Part shown: one piece after another, positions 7,698 to 28,535 of the stretch
How positions within the stretch are numbered: position 1 is the first letter of the stretch
How the letters are laid out: every line of letters starts with the position of its first letter
Origin: an uncultured Candidatus Saccharibacteria bacterium
GTDB lineage: Bacteria > Patescibacteriota > Minisyncoccia > UBA6257 > 2-01-FULL-56-20
Direction of reading: 5' to 3'
Assembly (NCBI GenBank): GCA_964637795.1
Contig: CAZWWZ010000001.1
Location: forward strand, 1 to 28,694
DNA length: 28,694 bases
Notes under the pieces: generated by a model
Databases searched by the model: none
What the model was told of the DNA's origin: nothing
Seen by the model: the letters and a program-made list of their open reading frames with translations, nothing else
Made by a program: the position numbers and the translations under genes

Positions 7698-7770
7698 GTT
7701 TCTGATGTTGGCTTCGGACACAAGACCGCCATGTCCTTGTCCGAGGCCAATATCAGAAACAGGACATGGC
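7698..7770 (+). promoter_or_regulatory. RNA switch controlling translation of the rep-like gene
   Basis: 23-bp stem 7698-7720/7738-7760 (2 G-U pairs); loop gccatgtcct (7728-7737) is the exact complement of aggacATGgc (7761-7770). Confidence 0.75.
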
Positions 7771-8254
7771 AATGGAGAAAAAAGAGATCAGTAATTTTCA
7801 GGTTAAATATGGGAGGCGTACGCTGTATTTTGGCTTCGTTCAAACTCCGAACCTCCTCATACAAAATAAAAAAGCACTTGGCCTGACAACGTCCGAACTC
7901 TTTTTATTGCAATATCTCATGTCATACGGATCAGCTCATGAAATCGCTGATTGGGTATATCCCTCGCTAAAGGAGATGTCGAAAATGACCGGATTATCAA
8001 CAGGGACCATCCACGCAGCAAAGGATGGACTGGTAAATAAAGGATTTATCGAGATCCTTAAAAAGGAAAATCCTTATGGGACGAATTATTACAATCTTTT
8101 CCCCATTAGAGAAAAGCTAGAACATATCGCCACGCGGAAAATAGAACAGCAATTCGTGAATAAAAAAATGAACCAGAAAAAATACGATGAACTTATGGGA
8201 GATACATCTACAAAGGTCGCTAAAAAGTTCTTTGAAACGAATGAGGATGTTTAA
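7766..8254 (+). CDS. DnaD-N/HTH_36-like replication initiator candidate
   Basis: PNLLIQNKKALGLTTSELFLLQYL...YPSLKEMSKMTGLSTGTIHAAKDGLVNKGFIEI. Confidence 0.55.
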   Translation: MAMEKKEISNFQVKYGRRTLYFGFVQTPNLLIQNKKALGLTTSELFLLQYLMSYGSAHEIADWVYPSLKEMSKMTGLSTGTIHAAKDGLVNKGFIEILKKENPYGTNYYNLFPIREKLEHIATRKIEQQFVNKKMNQKKYDELMGDTSTKVAKKFFETNEDV

Positions 8255-8357
8255 TCTCTAAACAGCCCCCTATTCGCTCTCTAAATACTATCAATAAGTC
8301 TTAATATTCTTTCTTATAAGGGGGAAGGAACTTAAGAAAAACGAGCTGAAAGAAAAA

Positions 8358-8385
8358 TTGATAAAGATAAACCATTTGTTATAAT
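8358..8385 (+). promoter_or_regulatory. sigma70 promoter of the recombinase transcript
   Basis: TTGATA (8358-8363)-N16-TATAAT (8380-8385) with extended TG (8377-8378); predicted TSS ~8391-8392. Confidence 0.75.
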
Positions 8386-8391
8386 GATTAT

Positions 8392-8522
8392 GTTGATCCG
8401 TGCAGAAACTTATTCCGAGAGGTTTTTTATTAGGCAATGCTCCCTTAAAGCGGCGGTTTCTGCCAGCATTGCCACTCCTTTCGGAGCGACTGTGCGGATC
8501 AACCAGAGACCGTCGCTTTAAG
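8392..8522 (+). ncRNA. candidate structured 5' leader of the recombinase mRNA
   Basis: 14-bp closing stem 8392-8405/8490-8503; 9-bp stem 8433-8441/8465-8473; loop 8444-8462 is complementary (19 bp, 2 G-U) to 8504-8522. Confidence 0.7.
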
Positions 8523-8533
8523 TTTCTAAAAAT

Positions 8534-10318
8534 ATGAAAAATCAAAACAGTGATGGTATTAGATATATCGCATATTCCCGCAAGAGCACGGAAGGAGAAG
8601 ATCGGCAGGTATTGTCCCTTGATGACCAAAAGCGTGAGATTGAGGAAATAATCCGGCGCGACGATCTTAAGGTTGTCGAAAGCTACCTCGGTACGGGCCA
8701 CGGCGAGAGCTTCTCGGCCCATAAACGCGGCAGACTAATCTTCGGCCATGTCATGCAAGAGATAGAATCCGGCAAGGCAAACGGCTTGCTCGTGTGGCAT
8801 CCGAACCGCATCGCCCGCAATGCCTTTGACGGAGGATTGGTCATTACTCTCATGGACGAGGGTAAACTTGCTGAGATCAGAACGCCGTATCGCACCTACC
8901 AAAACACGCCAGACGACAAATTCTTCTTGCAGCTTGAGTTTGGTATGGCCAAAAAATCATCCGATGATAATGGAGTTGCCGTTAAGCGCGGCCTAAAGAC
9001 AAAAGTGCAGATGGGCTGGTATCCATGCCGCGCTCCCCTCGGCTATCAGAACACCATCATCAAAGGCAAGGGCTTGAATGAGATCGAAAAAGACCCTGAA
9101 CGGTTCGATATCGTTAGGCGGATGTGGGATATGATGCTCACCGGCAACTACACGCCACCGCAGATTATGAGGATCGCCAACGAGGAATGGCATTTCAAAA
9201 CACGGCCCACAAAACGCCATAAAGGGCTAAAACCTTTGGGCCGAAGCAATCTCTATAAGATATTTACCAACCCCTTTTATTACGGCTGGTTCTCCTACGG
9301 CAGGCCAGCGCAACTCTATAAAGGCACGCACGAGCCGATGATCACCGAAGAGGAATTCGATCGCGTACAAAAAATTCTTGGCAAAGATGGCAAGCCGCGG
9401 CCGCAGACCCATCGTTTCGCCTTCACGGGATTGATGAGATGCGGGAATTGCGGAGCAATGATAACGGCTGAGGAGAAAATGAAGCGGCAACAGAACGGTA
9501 ACATCCATCACTACATTTACTATCACTGCACCAAACGGAAGGATGAAAACTGCACCGAAAAAATGGTCGAATTGAAGAACTTGGATGCGCAGATCGACGT
9601 GCTCGTAAAACACCTTGCCATTTCCGATAAATTCAAAGGCTGGGCCATTAAGTATCTCCACGAAATCCGACAGAACGAGGCAGTAAGTAATCAAGAGATA
9701 TTTGAGAGCAAACAGAAACAGCTTGCGCGGATCACCGACCAGCTTCAAAGCTTACTTTTGAAATACACGTCACCGGAGAACGCTAATGAGGAGATTATGA
9801 CCGCGCAGGAGCTTCAGACGCTCAAGGGCGGCCTCTTAAAACAGAAATCTGCCCTTGAGAACGATGTTGCCACGCAAGGCAAGGCCATTGAGGAATGGGT
9901 TACATTAAGTGAACGAACATTCAACTTCGCCCGCTATGCCAAGATATGGTTCGACAATGGCACGATGGACACGAAACGGGCCGTCTTAGCAGCCCTCGGT
10001 TCGAACCTCCTTATCAAAGACCAAAAACTCAACGTAGAGCTGTATCCTTTCTATCAAGTGATCTTCGACAACGTCGAAAAGGTGGAAAAAGAATTACTCA
10101 AGGTTCGAACCTCGGAAAATATAACGAACAAAAGGCAAATCGCCGCAATTTTGGCGAAATGTCCTACCTTGCGGAGGCGGAAGGATTCGAACCTTCGAGG
10201 GGATTTCTCCCCTAACATCTTAGCAGGATGCTGCCTTCAGCCACTCGGCCACGCCTCCATGTCGAACATTCCGAAGTCTAACGGAAAAACGCCATCTTTT
10301 CAATGCTCCAAGTTCTGA
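8534..10318 (+). CDS. large serine recombinase (resolvase + recombinase + Zn-ribbon + coiled coil); 3' end reads antisense through tRNA-Ser
   Basis: YSRKSTE catalytic motif, HPNRIARN, GWYPCRAPLGY, GTHEPMIT.EEFDRVQ, FTGLMRCGNCG...YYHC. Confidence 0.95.
   Translation: MKNQNSDGIRYIAYSRKSTEGEDRQVLSLDDQKREIEEIIRRDDLKVVESYLGTGHGESFSAHKRGRLIFGHVMQEIESGKANGLLVWHPNRIARNAFDGGLVITLMDEGKLAEIRTPYRTYQNTPDDKFFLQLEFGMAKKSSDDNGVAVKRGLKTKVQMGWYPCRAPLGYQNTIIKGKGLNEIEKDPERFDIVRRMWDMMLTGNYTPPQIMRIANEEWHFKTRPTKRHKGLKPLGRSNLYKIFTNPFYYGWFSYGRPAQLYKGTHEPMITEEEFDRVQKILGKDGKPRPQTHRFAFTGLMRCGNCGAMITAEEKMKRQQNGNIHHYIYYHCTKRKDENCTEKMVELKNLDAQIDVLVKHLAISDKFKGWAIKYLHEIRQNEAVSNQEIFESKQKQLARITDQLQSLLLKYTSPENANEEIMTAQELQTLKGGLLKQKSALENDVATQGKAIEEWVTLSERTFNFARYAKIWFDNGTMDTKRAVLAALGSNLLIKDQKLNVELYPFYQVIFDNVEKVEKELLKVRTSENITNKRQIAAILAKCPTLRRRKDSNLRGDFSPNILAGCCLQPLGHASMSNIPKSNGKTPSFQCSKF
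10172..10258 (-). tRNA. tRNA-Ser(GCT)
   Basis: Acceptor GGAGGCG/CGCCTCC, G discriminator, anticodon loop CT-GCT-AA, long variable arm, TTCGAAT T-loop; no encoded CCA. Confidence 0.97.
10275..10303 (-). promoter_or_regulatory. tRNA-Ser promoter
   Basis: TTGAAA-N17-TAGACT on the minus strand. Confidence 0.6.
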
Positions 10319-10321
10319 GCT

Positions 10322-11515
10322 ATGATGTCTTTTGAAATGACCGAAGATCAAGAATCATCCGAACATCCATCACCCAAAAATTTCCATCGCGTCGCAATCA
10401 GGATTTTTCGCATAACGTTGTATTTTTTTGCCGCAGTGGGCCTCTTTTTGACAGGGGGCTACCTGGCGGTGCGTTTCCACCTTACGGATGTAGGTGGTTC
10501 GACGGATCCGAATGACCGCTATTTCGCCGACCTTCAGAATAAAAATGCGGCGGATACTGTTTCCCAAACTGCAACCGGCACGGCATCTTTTGAAGAACTC
10601 GATCTTTGGTGCAAGCTGGCGGCGGTAAAAAACAATGACCCGGCAGACGCCGCCCGGGTTCTCGGTGCTTATCACGAAACCGATTCGTACACGCTTGCAC
10701 TTCGCATGGTGGAAAGCATCGGCGAACACTTCGCGACAGGAACGCCGCTCATGACAGCCTTTCAATCATGCGATGCTGAATGGCTGAATGTAAGCCTCAA
10801 CGCAAACGAAACACCAACGAGCTCGAATGTCGACGCAAGCGGCACGCCGAGCATCTATGCCTGGGTAAACACGCCGGAATGGGCGACGCTCAAAGCAGCA
10901 ATCACGAAGGATGCGCCGATGATCAATCAGGTTGCGACGGAGACCGGAGTCGGGCCACGCCTGATCACGGCACAGCTTATCGGCGAACAATTGCGGCTCT
11001 ACAACACCGAACGCGAGCTCTATAAGTCGGCGTTCGCGCCCCTGAATATTCTCGGCAGCGAAACGCAGTTCTCGCTCGGCGTCGCCGGCATCAAGACAGA
11101 GACTGCGGTCGAGGTCGAGGAAAATCTTGAGGATCCATCGTCCGATTATTATCCCGGCCCATCTTATGCGCATCTGCTCGATTTCACGACCGCAGATCAC
11201 GACGCTGAACGGTACGACCGCATCACCGACCAGCACAACCATTACTATGCCTACCTCTATGACGCGCTCTTCATTAAAGAGGTTGAGGCTCAGTGGGTAA
11301 AAGCAGGATATGATATCTCAAACCGGCCGGAGATCATAAGTACGCTCTACAACCTCGGATTCGCTGGCTCGCATCCGAACGCCGATCCCCACGTCGGCGG
11401 AACCATGATTACGATCGGCGGTACAAATTACACCTTCGGCTCACTTGGCTACGAGTTTTACTATTCCGGCGAGTTGGAAGACGCCATCCCCTACACAACG
11501 CCAGAGAAGGCTTAG
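10322..11515 (+). CDS. membrane-anchored protein with lysozyme/SLT-like C-terminal domain
   Basis: N-terminal TM; INQVATETGVGPRLITAQLIGEQ, SLGVAGIK and TLYNLG resemble SLT motifs I-III. Confidence 0.5.
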   Translation: MMSFEMTEDQESSEHPSPKNFHRVAIRIFRITLYFFAAVGLFLTGGYLAVRFHLTDVGGSTDPNDRYFADLQNKNAADTVSQTATGTASFEELDLWCKLAAVKNNDPADAARVLGAYHETDSYTLALRMVESIGEHFATGTPLMTAFQSCDAEWLNVSLNANETPTSSNVDASGTPSIYAWVNTPEWATLKAAITKDAPMINQVATETGVGPRLITAQLIGEQLRLYNTERELYKSAFAPLNILGSETQFSLGVAGIKTETAVEVEENLEDPSSDYYPGPSYAHLLDFTTADHDAERYDRITDQHNHYYAYLYDALFIKEVEAQWVKAGYDISNRPEIISTLYNLGFAGSHPNADPHVGGTMITIGGTNYTFGSLGYEFYYSGELEDAIPYTTPEKA

Positions 11516-24525: not shown

Positions 24526-25134
24526 TCATTCTTCGTCGGTGAATACCACCAATCGGTTTGAATAACTTTTTTGCGCTGCATTCCACGTTCCTTCGCATGT
24601 TATAAGATTGAGGTGCACCCCTTCGTCGTTCGAGTCAAATATGTTCGAGGTGTCGCCATTTTGGTCATATATTTGAATGCCACGCACCACGAACGTGGTG
24701 GTCGCGCCCCCTCTATCTCCAACGTACACTTTATCTCCGATATGCAATTGAGAGAGGTCATCGAATACCGCTTTTATGCCGTTCTTCCATCCTTCGTGTC
24801 CCGCAATCACGGCACTGCCCCTTTCCCCGGGATGCGGACCGAGATCGAACCAGGCCACATCAAGAGGACCTTCCGGCACGGCCATGGTTCCTTGCGGCGT
24901 AAGACCGACATCTTCGATCGCGGCATCAACATTGATTTTCGGAATCTCGAGTCGTGTCGGAAGCTTTAAATTCGCTTTCCCGAGATCCTGAATAGTCTGA
25001 TCACCGCTACGTGAAAATGGTTTTATGTCAGATTTCCAAAAAGATATCGCCGCAAAAATGACAGCCGCAAAAAAAAGAGTTCCGACGACACAAAGAACAA
25101 TCGGCTGCCATTTGAGCAAAATTTTCAATTTCAT
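24526..25134 (-). CDS. class F sortase
   Basis: RLEIPKINVDA, VAWFDLGPHPGERGSAVIAGH, LNLITC, NRLVV. Confidence 0.88.
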   Translation of the reverse strand: MKLKILLKWQPIVLCVVGTLFFAAVIFAAISFWKSDIKPFSRSGDQTIQDLGKANLKLPTRLEIPKINVDAAIEDVGLTPQGTMAVPEGPLDVAWFDLGPHPGERGSAVIAGHEGWKNGIKAVFDDLSQLHIGDKVYVGDRGGATTTFVVRGIQIYDQNGDTSNIFDSNDEGVHLNLITCEGTWNAAQKSYSNRLVVFTDEE

Positions 25135-25178: not shown

Positions 25179-25712
25179 TCATTTCACGCAAGCCGGCGCC
25201 CTTTCGCCCACGGCCTCATCCGCCGTATTGGCATCGGCAACGGCCTTGGTAGCTTCCGTAAGATCGGGAAGATGGTTGGGCGGAGCATAAACCGTATAAA
25301 TCTTAAGGTCTTCCGTTCCTGTATTCCAAAAATTATGATCGGTGCCAGGAACCACCACGACAACATCGCCGGGACCGACCGGGAACTGCTTGCCGTTCAA
25401 TTCCCCCTCTCCTGTTCCCGAAAGAAAGAACAGCGTTTGTTCGGCATATTTGTGCGTTTCTTCTCCGATATCTCCACCTGGCGGAATGCTCTGTACGACC
25501 AGTTGACTGTTCAATCCGGTAAATAAAACCTTACGAAAATTCGTATTTTCCTGCGCAATGGTTACGATATTCGCATCATAGCTCGCGGGGATGTTTTTCA
25601 CGGTCGAGGAAAAAATCAATCCTCTCACAAGAAAAAAGATAATGGCCAAAAAACATACAGTGATCACAATACCGCCAACGATAAGCCACTTCCGTGAAAT
25701 TTTTAATTCCAT
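25179..25712 (-). CDS. cupin-domain protein with N-terminal TM
   Basis: NFRKVLFTG..SQLVV.SIPPGGDIGEETH...EQ; VVVPGTDHNF.NTG. Confidence 0.85.
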   Translation of the reverse strand: MELKISRKWLIVGGIVITVCFLAIIFFLVRGLIFSSTVKNIPASYDANIVTIAQENTNFRKVLFTGLNSQLVVQSIPPGGDIGEETHKYAEQTLFFLSGTGEGELNGKQFPVGPGDVVVVVPGTDHNFWNTGTEDLKIYTVYAPPNHLPDLTEATKAVADANTADEAVGERAPACVK

Positions 25713-25733: not shown

Positions 25734-26141
25734 TTATTGTATTGGTTTGTGCGCCGCCGCCTCAAGAATCTTTTTGACCTGCGCAATAAATTCGTCGTTA
25801 TCAACACGCTTTTGAATATAATCCGTTATGGCAACCTCTTTCATCTTTTTCTCCGTTTCAATCGACAAGTCTTCATTCGTAAGCAAGACAATAGGAATGT
25901 GTGCTGTTTTCGCATCTTTCTTCAATCTGCCGGAGGCTTTTATGCCATCTATCCCCGGCAAATTCTTATCCATTAAAATAAGGTCGGGCTGAAGCCGTTC
26001 AGCCAGTTCCTGCCCCTGGTCGGCGTCCGGCGCATCAAGAACTTCATAACCGGCATTGCCAAGCAGGCTGCCGAAAAGCCGGCGCAGCACCGGATCGTCG
26101 TCAATGATCAAAATACGGATTTTTTCAGATGGCGCATCCAT
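25734..26141 (-). CDS. stand-alone receiver-domain response regulator
   Basis: ILIIDDD, PDLILMDKNLPGIDG, LLTN, YIQK; no output domain. Confidence 0.92.
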   Translation of the reverse strand: MDAPSEKIRILIIDDDPVLRRLFGSLLGNAGYEVLDAPDADQGQELAERLQPDLILMDKNLPGIDGIKASGRLKKDAKTAHIPIVLLTNEDLSIETEKKMKEVAITDYIQKRVDNDEFIAQVKKILEAAAHKPIQ

Positions 26142-26152
26142 ATATTTTTATT

Positions 26153-26545
26153 TTACGAAACGGCTTTGTCGCCGAGAATTTCTTTCACTTTTTTCACAAT
26201 ATCACGATACTCCCATTCGCTTTTGATGATAAAATCGAGAATCCCTATCTTTTTCGCTCTGGCGATCGTGACGGAATCCTGGGAATTGCTCCACATGATA
26301 ACCCGGGCATTCTTGCCCCACTTGTCCCTGCGAAGATTCTCAAGGAAATAAAAACCATCGGTGTTAGGCATGAGATTATCGACAAGAATGAAGTCCGGAT
26401 GGTCCTTAAGCGCACTATCCAAGCCTTCCTGGCCGTTGGTCGCCTTGATGACTGAAAAACCTTCGTGCACGAACTTATCCGAGATGCCGTTCAGAATAGA
26501 CGCCTCATCTTCAATGATCAACATCTTTCTTTGTGGGATATCCAT
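26153..26545 (-). CDS. stand-alone receiver-domain response regulator
   Basis: LIIEDE, PDFILVDNLMPNTDG, MWSN, FIIK. Confidence 0.9.
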   Translation of the reverse strand: MDIPQRKMLIIEDEASILNGISDKFVHEGFSVIKATNGQEGLDSALKDHPDFILVDNLMPNTDGFYFLENLRRDKWGKNARVIMWSNSQDSVTIARAKKIGILDFIIKSEWEYRDIVKKVKEILGDKAVS

Positions 26546-26552
26546 GATCGTT

Positions 26553-28055
26553 TTATTTTAATTCCAATCTTCGGGAACCTTCCTTTTTCTTCATGCCTTC
26601 AAGGGGGATGGTGACGTAGAATGTCGATCCCTTGTTTTCCTTTGATTCGAACCATATCTTCCCGCCTGTTTTTTCTATCGTTTCCTTGATGATATACAAT
26701 CCAAGACCAGTGCCGTCAGGATCTTTTACCCGCGCGTTATCGGCCCGGAACATTTTCGTGAATATCTTCGACTGTGCATCTTCTGGAATTCCATAGCCGG
26801 TGTCGGTAACCGAGATAAGAACATTGGGACCGTCTTTTTTTATGTTAAGCGTTACGCTCCCTTCCGGGGGTGTGTATTTTACGGCATTCGAAAATAAGTT
26901 TTGAAATACCATTCGGATGATGTTGAGATCGGCGTTAATGGGGGGAAGGTCCTTTTCGAAGTTTTTATTTACCAGTAGCTTCTTTTCGTTGATTCTCAGT
27001 TCGAGATCCTTAAGCGCACTCTCCGCGACATTTTGAAGATTTATCTGTTCAGGTTCGACAACGAACACTCCCAGATCAACCCGCGAGACATTAAGAAGCG
27101 CCGTAATCAGATTGATCATGCGGTCATTGGCGTTTTTTATTTCTGTAAGATACTCGCGCTGCTTGTCGTTGAGCGGTCCGGCATCGCCATCGAGAAGCAT
27201 GCCCGTATATCCCTTGAGCGCCGTGAGGGGCGTACGCAACTGATGTGAGGCGATAGAAACGAACTCATCCTTCGCCAGGTCGAGCGAACGCAATTCTTTA
27301 TTCGCCAGTTCAACTTTTTTTGCCGTCACGGCAAGCTGTTTTGCTTTAATATCCAAATCCTTTGCCGTCACGAGCAATTTACGCCTGACACTCTCCTTCT
27401 CCTTGGCGGTCGTAGCGAGCTTTTTTGCGGTGACCACTAATTTATCCCTGACACTCTCCTTTTCTCTCGCTGTCATGGCAAGCTGTTTGGCTTTGAGCCG
27501 AAGCGTTTCTGCCGTCACTGCCAGCTTGTCCCTGATGTTCTCTTTTTCTTTGGCAGTTACTGCGAGCTGTTTAGCCTTAAGACGAAGTGCTTTCGCGGTT
27601 ACCAGAAGCTTACGTCTGACGCTTTCCTTCTCCTTGGCGGTCGTGGCAAGCTGTTTGGCCGTGACCACAAGTTTATCCCTGACACTCTCCTTTTCTTCTG
27701 CGGTCGTAGCAAGCTGTTTTGCTCTAAGCCGCAACGCCTCCGCCGTTACCGCCAATTTACCTCTAATGCTCTCTTTTTCCTTGGCAGTAGCGGCGAGCTG
27801 GCGAGCCTTAAGTCGGAGCGTTTTTGCCGTCACCAAAAGCTTACGCCTGACACTCTCCTTTTCCTTGGCAGTAGCGGCGAGTTTTTTTGCCGTGACCACA
27901 AGTTTATCCCTGACGCTCTCCTTTTCTTCTGCGGTCGTAGCAAGCTGTTTTGCCTTGACCACCAATTTACTCCTGACGCCTTCCTTTTTCTTTGCTAAAA
28001 CTTTCAACTTAAGGATCGTACTGTTGGTTGCGGAAACAATTGTTTTTTTATTCAT
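26553..28055 (-). CDS. soluble HisKA/HATPase_c histidine kinase with tandem-repeat coiled-coil input region (likely start MNKK; ORF extends to 28073)
   Basis: H-box FVSIASHQLRTPL, N-box NLFSNAVKYT, DTGYGI, GTGLGLYI; no TM or PAS/GAF domain. Confidence 0.93.
   Translation of the reverse strand: MNKKTIVSATNSTILKLKVLAKKKEGVRSKLVVKAKQLATTAEEKESVRDKLVVTAKKLAATAKEKESVRRKLLVTAKTLRLKARQLAATAKEKESIRGKLAVTAEALRLRAKQLATTAEEKESVRDKLVVTAKQLATTAKEKESVRRKLLVTAKALRLKAKQLAVTAKEKENIRDKLAVTAETLRLKAKQLAMTAREKESVRDKLVVTAKKLATTAKEKESVRRKLLVTAKDLDIKAKQLAVTAKKVELANKELRSLDLAKDEFVSIASHQLRTPLTALKGYTGMLLDGDAGPLNDKQREYLTEIKNANDRMINLITALLNVSRVDLGVFVVEPEQINLQNVAESALKDLELRINEKKLLVNKNFEKDLPPINADLNIIRMVFQNLFSNAVKYTPPEGSVTLNIKKDGPNVLISVTDTGYGIPEDAQSKIFTKMFRADNARVKDPDGTGLGLYIIKETIEKTGGKIWFESKENKGSTFYVTIPLEGMKKKEGSRRLELK
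27336..27944 (-). repeat. coding tandem repeat: 63- and 84-bp units in a 231-bp higher-order period
   Basis: Units of 21,28,28,21,28,28,21,28 aa (203 aa, 29 heptads); 27670 vs 27901 align at offset 231. Confidence 0.95.
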
Positions 28056-28112
28056 GGAAAGTGTCCTAGCCACGGCTTGGAGCTTTTTCTAATGGCATAT
28101 CGGCTTATAGTT

Positions 28113-28535
28113 CTACGCCGGTTTATTTTCTGCGGTTTCAAGAATCTTTTTCACGCGCTCAATGAATTCTTCGTTGCTGACCCCTTTTTGGATATACTCC
28201 GTCACTCCAACTTCTTTCATCCATGTTTGTGCCTCAAGGGACAGGTCGGCATTGGTAAGAAACGCAATAGGAACATCCGCCGCAGGAGAACCCGGTTCAT
28301 TCCTTATCAAGTCGGCGGTTTTGATACCGTCGCTGCCCGGCATGTTGATGTCGAGCAACACAAGATCGGGATGAAATCTGCGCGCCATTTCCCGTCCAAG
28401 ATCGCCGTTTCCGGCATAGATAACTTCATAGCCGGCCGACCCGAGCAAGCTGCCGAAAAGCCGTCGGCTCGTTGGATCGTCATCTATTATTAAAATATGC
28501 TTAGCAGTCGATTCTTTTTTAAGTGCTTCTTCCAT
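28113..28535 (-). CDS. stand-alone receiver-domain response regulator, paralog of 25734-26141
   Basis: ILIIDDDP..RRLFGSLLG.AGYEV, DINMPGSDG, FLTN, YIQK. Confidence 0.92.
   Translation of the reverse strand: MEEALKKESTAKHILIIDDDPTSRRLFGSLLGSAGYEVIYAGNGDLGREMARRFHPDLVLLDINMPGSDGIKTADLIRNEPGSPAADVPIAFLTNADLSLEAQTWMKEVGVTEYIQKGVSNEEFIERVKKILETAENKPA

Follow-up and report, generated by a model that had tools for sequence, protein, structure and literature searches.

The gene of interest lies on the minus strand of the window (that is, the whole stretch of 28,694 nucleotides that was analysed), where an ORF at 26553..28073 encodes 506 aa. The gene itself, for a histidine kinase with a coiled-coil array, is placed at 26553..28055 (stop codon counted) from the ORF call, the starts of orthologues and the Pfam domains HisKA and HATPase_c; its 500-aa product begins at the ATG at 28055, which is the start in all orthologues (MNKKT...) and has an AGGA 9 nt to its 5' side. 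The product is a cytoplasmic class I (HisKA, HK853/WalK-like) histidine kinase of an ultra-small Patescibacteria bacterium. Across the 506-aa ORF, Pfam found HisKA (aa 267-334) and HATPase_c (aa 383-492) and nothing else that could be regarded as real, so that N-terminal of HisKA the kinase has no recognised sensor domain; this bears out the initial annotation, which had described a sensor-less histidine kinase with a repeat helix as its sole input region. The first ~260 aa contain no membrane segment, and not a single aromatic, Cys, His or Pro residue. Pfam matches of the array to DUF3557, DUF3540 and PhageMin_Tail, all at or under the cut-offs, were set aside as low-complexity or coiled-coil noise, and an antisense ORF on the plus strand (27403..28092) is taken for an artefactual mirror image of the repeat. 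An NCBIfam search of the kinase gave no model over cut-off, and only generic matches to the kinase core.

The neighbouring genes, also on the minus strand, are rich in receivers. Upstream in the operon (28113..28535) is a gene for a stand-alone receiver of 140 aa (Pfam Response_reg, 6.1e-22; no output domain), whose position is conserved in loci L001 and L086-88 and at the locus of P0001. Only 7 nt downstream of the kinase gene is another stand-alone receiver (26153..26545, 130 aa; Response_reg, 2.3e-19), followed by a second downstream one (25734..26141, 135 aa; Response_reg, 5.8e-23), and this kinase-REC-REC order was conserved in all loci examined. After a gap of 21 nt there is a gene (25179..25712) for a Cupin_2 protein (Pfam) with a hydrophobic N-terminal segment, which is confined to the lineage of the window (it is present in L086-88, but not in L001 or at the P0001 locus). 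The last gene of the same-strand cluster, at 24526..25134, encodes a sortase (Pfam Sortase, 1.6e-21), and a sortase gene is also downstream in L001, in L086-88 and at the P0001 locus. A CHASE3 kinase, REC and the sortase are conserved in the closest loci; the possibility that the neighbouring CHASE3 kinase might be a close, heterodimerising paralogue was rejected, as its identity is only 29%. A scan for promoters and terminators gave nothing above chance.

The catalytic core is easily recognised. The HisKA/DHp domain (27072..27275, minus strand; PF00512, E 2.4e-18, above the curated cut-off) contains the H-box SHQLRTPL, which a PDB sequence search aligned with SHELRTPL of WalK, and its putative phospho-acceptor, His271 (codon at 27243..27245, minus strand), falls within a helix modelled by AlphaFold2 (AF2) at residues 178-288. 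In the HATPase_c domain (26598..26927, minus strand; PF02518, E 1e-27), the N, G1, F and G2 boxes of the GHKL family can be read directly as NLFSNAVKY, DTGYGI, FTKMFR and GTGLGL. The best Foldseek matches were to HK853/WalK cores (E 2e-20 to HK853), and core identity to solved structures of this type is 33-36%. AF2 also modelled the helical hairpin of the DHp (helices 178-288 and 297-327; in the relative P0058, 11-114 and 122-152). HisKA, the GHKL boxes and the predicted hairpin are together what would be expected of a class I kinase resembling HK853 and WalK.

The N-terminal half is of a quite different character. It starts with a conserved cap (aa 1-15, MNKKTIVSATNSTIL; 28011..28055, minus strand; family consensus MNKKxxxSxxxxTIxKLKVLAKKKE), kept in family members with and without PAS domains. 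Next comes a degenerate first unit of 21 aa (KLKVLAKKKEGVRSKLVVKAK; 27948..28010, minus strand), which is in heptad phase and has 57-62% protein identity to the other units, and then the strict repeat array of 203 aa (aa 43-245; 27339..27947, minus strand), made up of 29 heptads in units of 21-28-28/21-28-28/21-28 with a super-period of 77 aa or 231 bp, as seen from Tandem Repeats Finder, a unit table and heptad rows. A last partial unit, with the junction into the DHp (QLAVTAKKVELANKELRSL; 27282..27338, minus strand), still holds the heptad phase. When aa 22-266 are set out seven to a row, 35 heptads follow one another without interruption, degenerate ends included (unit order 21-21-28-28-21-28-28-21-28 plus the partial unit). 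Tandem Repeats Finder gave a period of 231 bp (2.5 copies, 82% matches, score 777, at 27379..27953), in agreement with the heptad rows and with the 29-heptad array of 21- and 28-aa units and 77-aa period that had been described initially.

The heptad profile (a = L/K, d = T/V, e = A/R) is atypical in having Thr at d and small or apolar residues at five of the seven positions; Lys replaces Leu at a every 2-4 heptads, and the 7-residue and 7/3 harmonics are stronger than the 3.5 harmonic. Comparison of 833 units showed L, A, E-K-E, R, L, T and A to be conserved at 87-99%, the exposed Glu at b being 99% conserved and the Glu/Lys at g 84-87%. Residues F, W, Y, H, C and P account for only 27 of 7585 in the arrays of the family. 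The helical region of aa 17-250 carries a net charge of +37, and family-wide each chain keeps a net charge of about +1.1 for every heptad. Single alpha-helix (SAH) domains have very high contents of E, K and R and almost no apolar residues, and were rejected as a description of the array, in which ~40% of residues are charged but ~43% are Ala, Leu, Val, Ile or Met. Nor is the array an S-helix module: an S-helix is a single segment of ~40-50 residues between two domains, with a polar ERT signature, whereas the array is 245 aa long, N-terminal, repetitive and without ERT. Searched by itself against the sequences of the PDB, the array had no match at E values up to 1.

From the models, the N-terminal 260 aa are predicted to be one long amphipathic alpha-helix of 14-, 21- and 28-residue units, in phase with DHp helix 1 and its histidine. 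In the AF2 monomer, residues 1-10 are disordered, and helices at 11-168 and 178-288 are separated by a break and fold-back at residues 169-177 (pLDDT 44, low confidence); in P0058, a relative with 11 heptads, a single unbroken helix (11-114) passes through His96. The rod of ~30 nm that had been envisaged for a fully helical array is arithmetically correct, and helix is what AF2 predicts. Copy number varies among relatives, a check proposed at the outset: in ~55 relatives from Patescibacteria metagenomes, the arrays comprise 11-41 heptads, change in whole heptads and keep all their repeat motifs in a single heptad phase with respect to the His. Measured from the N-terminal motif, the His lies 79 to 289 aa away, always at 2 mod 7, and 724 of 732 inter-motif spacings are divisible by 7, so the earlier proposal that whole-heptad units preserve register into the DHp is well supported. 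The apolar phases of the array relative to the His (5, 1 and 2) are those of the apolar residues just before the His, both here and in WalK, and in P0208 the array adjoins a different DHp type, again in phase 6. The conservation of one phase is partly attributable to the recombining units being multiples of 7, and so does not on its own prove selection on signalling. Dozens of natural alleles with 11-41 heptads and one phase to the His are direct comparative evidence that register is constrained and length is not.

The paralogues are informative about what the array replaces. P0069 has a kinase core 85% identical to that of the window's kinase and the same ANKELRxLDLAKDEF junction, with TM-CHASE3-TM in the place of the array, and in other paralogues the array is found beside PAS domains, including between PAS and DHp. 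The array holds the position of the TM-CHASE3-TM sensor of close paralogues, and serves others as a connector beside PAS. In PAS-containing paralogues an N-terminal array precedes the PAS domain, away from the DHp, which means that DHp rotation cannot be the sole role of the array. The repeat is rare: there were ~100 matches among 1.84 billion representative proteins. A contig scan with kinase-core peptides returned 80 loci, just one of which had the array (L006, Falkowbacteria), and so was of little help with taxonomy or gene neighbourhood. We found no description of an array-kinase family in the literature searched on coiled-coil kinases in Patescibacteria/CPR.

How does such an array evolve? 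It had been suggested that near-identical DNA copies imply recent expansion, but the 77-aa super-units share 81% identity as DNA (88% as protein) and array copies overall have DNA identities of 62-81%, the only exception being a 63-bp pair (27885..27947 and 27654..27716) with 97% identity. Between copies, the proportion of synonymous differences is 0.57-0.77, which is near saturation and argues against recent expansion, with dN of 0.07-0.15 and omega of 0.04-0.14; the copies are thus old, and the peptide is under strong purifying selection. Three independent JGI assemblies (contigs of up to 589 kb) match the window exactly in length, with 17 substitutions and no indel, and P0010 was found again in four contigs from separate samples. 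A 48-bp patch (27627..27674, minus strand) has 9 differences from the same-species contigs L086-88, whose version agrees at 46 of 48 positions with the paralogous copy lying 231 bp downstream (27396..27443), and is a case of intragenic gene conversion. Length differences are found between close relatives, always as single contiguous blocks of 3-7 heptads, odd numbers included: P0004 and P0010 differ by a single 147-bp indel flanked by a ~47-bp direct repeat, plus 3 mismatches, and P0199 and P0203 by deletions of 28 aa and 21 aa. Indels of whole units and gene conversion are the means by which the array evolves. Cluster members of 400 and 427 aa, considered as copy-number variants, proved to be gene-start miscalls (the L086-88 ORF is intact and of equal length).

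What might be the function of a helix of this kind? The explanation that we prefer, and consider on balance to be probable, is that an in-register dimeric coiled-coil stalk replaces the sensor and sets the state of the DHp, with the kinase feeding two or three stand-alone receivers. The helices of a homodimer would pair as a parallel, in-register stalk ~35 nm long, with a core of Leu at a, Thr/Val at d and Ala at e, and a polar layer (Glu-g, Lys-a, Glu-b, Arg-e) every 2-4 heptads. The stalk would clamp the DHp helices by their N-terminal ends in a single rotational state, and this clamped state would set the default balance of autokinase and phosphatase activities; only length changes of 7n would keep the DHp state, which would explain the absence of other lengths. 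Phosphoryl groups would then pass to the two single-domain receivers co-transcribed with the kinase, and perhaps also to the third, upstream receiver, and the kinase, its receivers and the neighbouring CHASE3 membrane kinase may form a small multi-kinase network near genes for sortase and surface proteins. Regulation would be mainly in trans, through receivers, partner kinase and expression level, and a marginally stable stalk might contribute a further input. Such a parallel dimer would be disfavoured on its own by its net charge (about +1.1 for each heptad of each chain), a hint that a polyanionic partner or a higher-order assembly may be involved.

It is possible, though we think it doubtful, that the stalk is itself the sensor: a marginally stable coiled coil that would alter its folding or supercoiling with temperature, with ionic strength or on binding a polyanion (membrane lipids, nucleic acid and polyphosphate may be candidates) and would thereby switch the kinase, its length tuning the set-point. 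The kinase has no other input element, the core has conserved and potentially destabilising residues every 2-4 heptads (Lys at a, Thr at d, Arg at e), the positive charge is conserved throughout the family, and array length differs between near-identical strains. A comparable idea is provided by TlpA of Salmonella, in which the stability of a long, dimeric coiled coil might be the signal, and which is thus a precedent for thermosensing (PMC9611254); but TlpA is a DNA-binding repressor with no tandem-repeat array, and the PDB search with the array revealed no sequence similarity to it. Two of about five distinct loci have genes for HSP20 or hrcA-grpE-dnaK-dnaJ at a distance of 3-8 kb, but these are absent from the window, L002 and L086-88. 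Moreover, the array is a plain PAS-DHp connector in paralogues, a use that would suit a transmission element no less than a sensor. Two findings bear on the initial ideas of a mechanical, thermal or crowding sensor and of a ruler: this use as a connector, and the CHASE3 membrane sensor that takes the place of the array in kinases with an 85% identical core. In its fullest form, which we regard with similar reserve, this would be a length-programmable physical sensor in which a metastable cationic coiled coil switches the kinase, unit indels tune its set-point, and the 14/21/28 spacing of polar layers serves as a barcode for in-register pairing.

An unlikely alternative makes the stalk a spacer, tether or scaffold, the cap or the exposed E-K-E...R motifs binding a partner or cell structure, so that the array might act as a ruler or as a dock for several receivers. 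This would suit the conservation of the cap with or without PAS, its duplication in P0016, P0021 and P0026, the N-terminal location of the array even where a PAS sensor comes after it, and the three stand-alone receivers of the operon. Conservation of the b and g residues goes beyond the usual needs of a structural rod, but the conserved charges might equally be explained as g-e' and a-g' ionic pairs in a parallel dimer; no partner could be identified, and the roughly four-fold range of lengths (11-41 heptads) would be surprising in a ruler that had to fit a structure of fixed size.

That the helix folds back as an antiparallel hairpin, two such hairpins forming a chemoreceptor-like four-helix bundle, seems very improbable. 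The AF2 monomer does fold back at 169-177, and an a-d-e core with small Ala and Thr would suit tight multi-helix packing. The break, however, is modelled with low confidence within a motif that is helical everywhere else, the 11-heptad relative was modelled as one straight helix, the arrays have no conserved Gly/Pro turn, and the indels are single blocks, some of them odd in heptad number, rather than symmetric pairs.

Finally, the array could scarcely be a hypermutable contingency locus, as was initially suggested, or an assembly artefact, with copy number flipping in populations or mis-assembled: there are whole-unit length differences between near-identical genes (P0004/P0010, P0199/P0203) and a gene-conversion patch, but the copies are diverged in DNA and near saturation at synonymous sites, P0010 was recovered from separate samples, the identical length in four independent assemblies excludes artefact and speaks against a hypermutable locus as well, and the length variants, in units of 63-84 bp, are always in frame and so provide no on/off switching.

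Returning to the stalk as a replacement for the sensor, we may compare it with known systems. HK853 and WalK (YycG) are alike in their DHp/catalytic core (H-box, N, G1, F and G2) and in having cognate receiver genes adjacent, but have transmembrane/extracellular, HAMP or PAS input, whereas the array kinase has only its repeat helix, and receivers without output domains. DegS of Bacillus subtilis, like the array kinase, is cytoplasmic, has a helical N-terminal region and lacks a recognised ligand-binding domain; it differs in being of the HisKA_3 type, with a short, non-repetitive N-terminal domain and a DNA-binding partner regulator. Poly-HAMP arrays and the heptad classes of chemoreceptors (reportedly described by Alexander and Zhulin in 2007) are likewise helical backbones lengthened by whole modules with register kept, but Pfam detects no HAMP in the array kinase, and the array has neither the hairpin tip nor the symmetric indels of chemoreceptors. 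Coiled-coil linkers such as the Jalpha-DHp linker of YF1 and the signalling helices of BvgS and DesK also run continuously into DHp helix 1 and are phase-dependent; these are 2-6 heptads of unique sequence joining a sensor to the DHp, while the array kinases have 11-41 tandem-repeat heptads and no sensor upstream. In YF1, an engineered LOV kinase, linkers of 7n are active and those of 7n+1 invert the signal (PMC6798134).

CPR bacteria have 0.29 histidine kinases per 100 genes (PMC10805038), and with so few in Patescibacteria, each probably controls something central to the lifestyle of its owner. The array-kinase family is a natural counterpart of the linker-length experiments done with engineered kinases, and offers ready material for asking whether a bare coiled coil can sense physically, and how far signals travel along a two-helix cable.

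The coil kinase is encoded on the minus strand by an ORF (26553..28073) of 506 aa if counted from a GTG, but because all orthologues start six codons later, at Met (MNKKT...), and an AGGA lies 9 nt upstream of the ATG at 28055, the gene is taken to be 26553..28055 (500 aa), which after this revision coincides exactly with the coordinates in the initial annotation. The architecture proposed there, a histidine kinase lacking a sensor and having a heptad repeat as its input region, also proves to be real: Pfam recognises HisKA (aa 267-334 of the 506-aa ORF) and HATPase_c (aa 383-492), with no credible Pfam match upstream of HisKA; Tandem Repeats Finder reports a period of 231 bp at 27379..27953 (2.5 copies, 82% matches, score 777); and 35 uninterrupted heptads (aa 22-266) emerge when the sequence is set in rows of seven. 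NCBIfam gave generic kinase-core matches only, each under its cut-off. The units run 21, 21-28-28, 21-28-28, 21-28 and then a partial unit, the strict array occupying aa 43-245 (203 aa, or 29 heptads). The helical region (aa 17-250) is composed solely of K, A, L, V, T, E, R, S, Q, D, I, G, N and M, without aromatic residues, Cys, His or Pro, and has a net charge of +37. An antisense ORF across the array (27403-28092, plus strand, 229 aa, MAVVASFFAVTTNLSLTLSFSLAV...) is in all likelihood an artefact that mirrors the repetitive codon pattern and its lack of stops.

A whole-protein search yielded a large set of Patescibacteria kinases sharing the core, and in about 55 of these the repeat is the sole N-terminal region (total length 300-536 aa). 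The distance from a conserved N-terminal motif, LKLKVLAKKKE, to the phospho-His ranges from 79 to 289 aa and is always 2 mod 7 (11 to 41 heptads); TAKEKE..R motifs keep one phase relative to the His in every member, and the spacings between them (14, 21, 28, 35, 42 or 49) are multiples of seven in 724 of 732 cases. Across 833 units from 123 proteins the consensus is xLAxTAKEKExVRxKLxVTAx, in which L, A, E-K-E, R, L, T and A are 87-99% conserved. Array architecture is fluid between species: one homologue with 81% identity (P0002) has 21- and 28-aa units in a different order; P0004 and P0010 differ by three mismatches in 1164 bp and one 147-bp (7-heptad) indel with a direct repeat of about 47 bp on either side (flanks 98.3% identical); P0007 and P0013 differ in length by 42 aa, P0053 and P0061 by 35 aa, and P0199 and P0203 by deletions of 28 and 21 aa. 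With phases constant, distances constant modulo seven and near-identical genes differing by whole units, the expectation that copy number would vary among relatives with register kept is borne out. Such conservation of phase is partly automatic, as the units are multiples of seven; the absence of 1-6-residue indels anywhere in arrays diverged to 60-70% identity speaks for selection on helix continuity too.

The near-identical DNA copies and recent expansion described in the initial annotation are not found. Between the two full 77-aa super-units, identity is 88% in protein and only 81% in DNA, and by the Nei-Gojobori method synonymous differences between copies (proportion 0.57-0.77) are essentially saturated, with dN 0.07-0.15 and omega 0.04-0.14; the sole exception is a 63-bp pair (27885..27947 and 27654..27716) with 97% DNA identity. 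The copies are old, their peptide kept by purifying selection. Array length evolves in whole heptads under that selection, and it changes by recombination between diverged repeats, not by slippage of identical ones.

The array continues as one helix into the DHp domain, in heptad phase with the phospho-acceptor His271. Relative to that residue, array Leu lies at phase 5, Thr/Val at 1 and Ala at 2, and the apolar residues just before it (A-2, V-5, F-6, L-13, L-16) fall in the same phases, as do V-2, V-5, F-6 and I-13 of WalK in a PDB sequence alignment; the array's apolar seam thus runs on into the DHp core. In Foldseek and PDB sequence searches the kinase core sides with HK853 and WalK, while the array by itself has no PDB sequence match. 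The heptad profile is unlike that of a textbook coiled coil, with Thr at d, five of the seven positions small or apolar, and 7 and 7/3 harmonics stronger than the 3.5 harmonic. Taking a as Leu, there is a conserved polar layer, Glu(g)-Lys(a)-Glu(b)...Val(d)-Arg(e), which would permit ion pairing between g and e' and between a and g' in a dimer that is parallel and in register. In the homodimer the two helices would form a parallel in-register stalk of about 35 nm, fixing the rotational state of DHp helix 1 and tolerating lengths of 7n only, in parallel with YF1 linkers, in which 7n and 7n+1 lengths behave differently (PMC6798134).

Net charge per heptad across the family averages +1.1 (range 0.43-1.59). 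A stalk that itself senses temperature, ions or polyanions seems unlikely, though it is the alternative we would keep most in mind; a tether, ruler or docking scaffold is slightly less likely again. In other proteins the array serves, in modular fashion, as a connector. Array-only searches found almost exclusively histidine kinases, some with PAS and some without, from Patescibacteria and Peregrinibacteria, and few of them: of 1.84 billion representative proteins, 103 matched at E up to 1e-3. The array is N-terminal to PAS in P0008, P0027 and P0037, ahead of and between two PAS domains in P0206 (1060 aa), between PAS and a different DHp type in P0208 (652 aa; phase relative to His 6, as in every sensor-less member), and C-terminal in P0213 (608 aa), which has no recognisable H-box; the longest single array observed has about 12 motifs (roughly 270 aa). 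Found in such varied positions, the module is a lineage-specific helical cable. One paralogue (P0069), with a core 85% identical to the query, has TM-CHASE3-TM fused at the same ANKELRxLDLAKDEF junction, and P0083 has a PAS domain in addition; in the window's protein the array occupies the place of a sensor.

A fold-back four-helix bundle is improbable. AlphaFold2 models (monomers only, with family alignments supplied) give the query a helix at 11-168, a break at 169-177 (pLDDT 44, low confidence) and a helix at 178-288 that passes through His271 and ends with DHp helix 1; the 11-heptad relative P0058 has a single unbroken helix (11-114) through His96, at pLDDT 74-86. We read the break in the longer model as an artefact of monomer modelling.

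A contingency locus or an assembly artefact can be dismissed almost entirely, as the window and three independent JGI assemblies of the species (L086-L088, contigs up to 589 kb) have genes of exactly equal length, with 17 substitutions and no indels. Nine of these substitutions cluster in a 48-bp patch (27627..27674), in whose JGI form 46 of 48 positions agree with the paralogous copy lying 231 bp downstream; this is a case of intragenic gene conversion. Cluster members of 400 and 427 aa, considered as shorter alleles, are start-codon miscalls (L086-L088 10001-11203; P0196, P0197, P0201, P0204): public gene calls place the start at Leu codons within the repeat even though nothing of the 500-aa ORF is missing, a pitfall in annotating repeat genes.

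The window is chromosomal (GyrB, NusG, FtsK and tRNAs are present). A MazF/PemK-like toxin (442-891) adjoins a SocA/Panacea-domain antitoxin (899-1516) on the minus strand, a candidate toxin-antitoxin system. A LOOT RNA (Rfam RF03000; 5934-6054, minus strand; full-length match, scoring 82.7 bits where the gathering score is 46.4) has an unknown ORF on one side and a gene for a PG_binding_1 protein on the other. A large serine recombinase/integrase (8534-10318, plus strand; Pfam Resolvase, Recombinase and Zn_ribbon_recom; phrog_95 integrase, 3.9e-64), whose 3' end overlaps tRNA-Ser(gct) (10171-10258) on the opposite strand, adjoins a DnaD-like loader (7766-8254) and unknown ORFs, and 7766-11515 may be an integrated mobile element.

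The kinase itself lies in a tight same-strand cluster: a stand-alone receiver (REC; 28113..28535), the kinase, two further RECs (26153..26545 and 25734..26141), a Cupin_2 protein (25179-25712) whose N-terminal segment is hydrophobic, and a sortase, with successive gaps of 57, 7, 11, 21 and 44 nt. The cupin insertion is limited to this lineage, being absent from the related L001 and P0001 loci; the kinase-REC-REC order is conserved in all loci examined. Ahead of the cluster, the closest relatives carry a CHASE3 membrane kinase, its core only 29% identical to that of the coil kinase, and surface proteins (PF11999 Ice_binding, CLIPPER_2); after it come sortase and DsbA. Just past the window's right end, directly upstream of the operon, L086-L088 (4038-8892) encode two PF11999 'Ice_binding' proteins (one with CLIPPER_2), a DUF5670 peptide and a CHASE3 histidine kinase, with an ECF-type sigma factor and a second sortase further upstream. 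Two relatives have heat-shock genes at a distance of 3-8 kb from the coil kinase (HSP20 at L001 8662-9198; hrcA-grpE-HSP20-dnaK-dnaJ at L004 12704-17458); no such genes were found close to it in L002, L086-L088 or the window. In small genomes such proximity may arise by coincidence.

That coiled coils can feed into kinases and that signalling can depend on heptads is well established; what appears to be undescribed in the literature searched is a kinase whose sole input is a tandem-repeat stalk of 11-41 heptads, with natural length alleles all in one register. None of the cluster's REC proteins has an output domain, and stand-alone receivers are known as hubs or allosteric regulators of kinases. 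On balance we lean towards an in-register dimeric stalk that fixes DHp rotation, a reading in which the kinase would by default keep to one set-point and modulation would come in trans.
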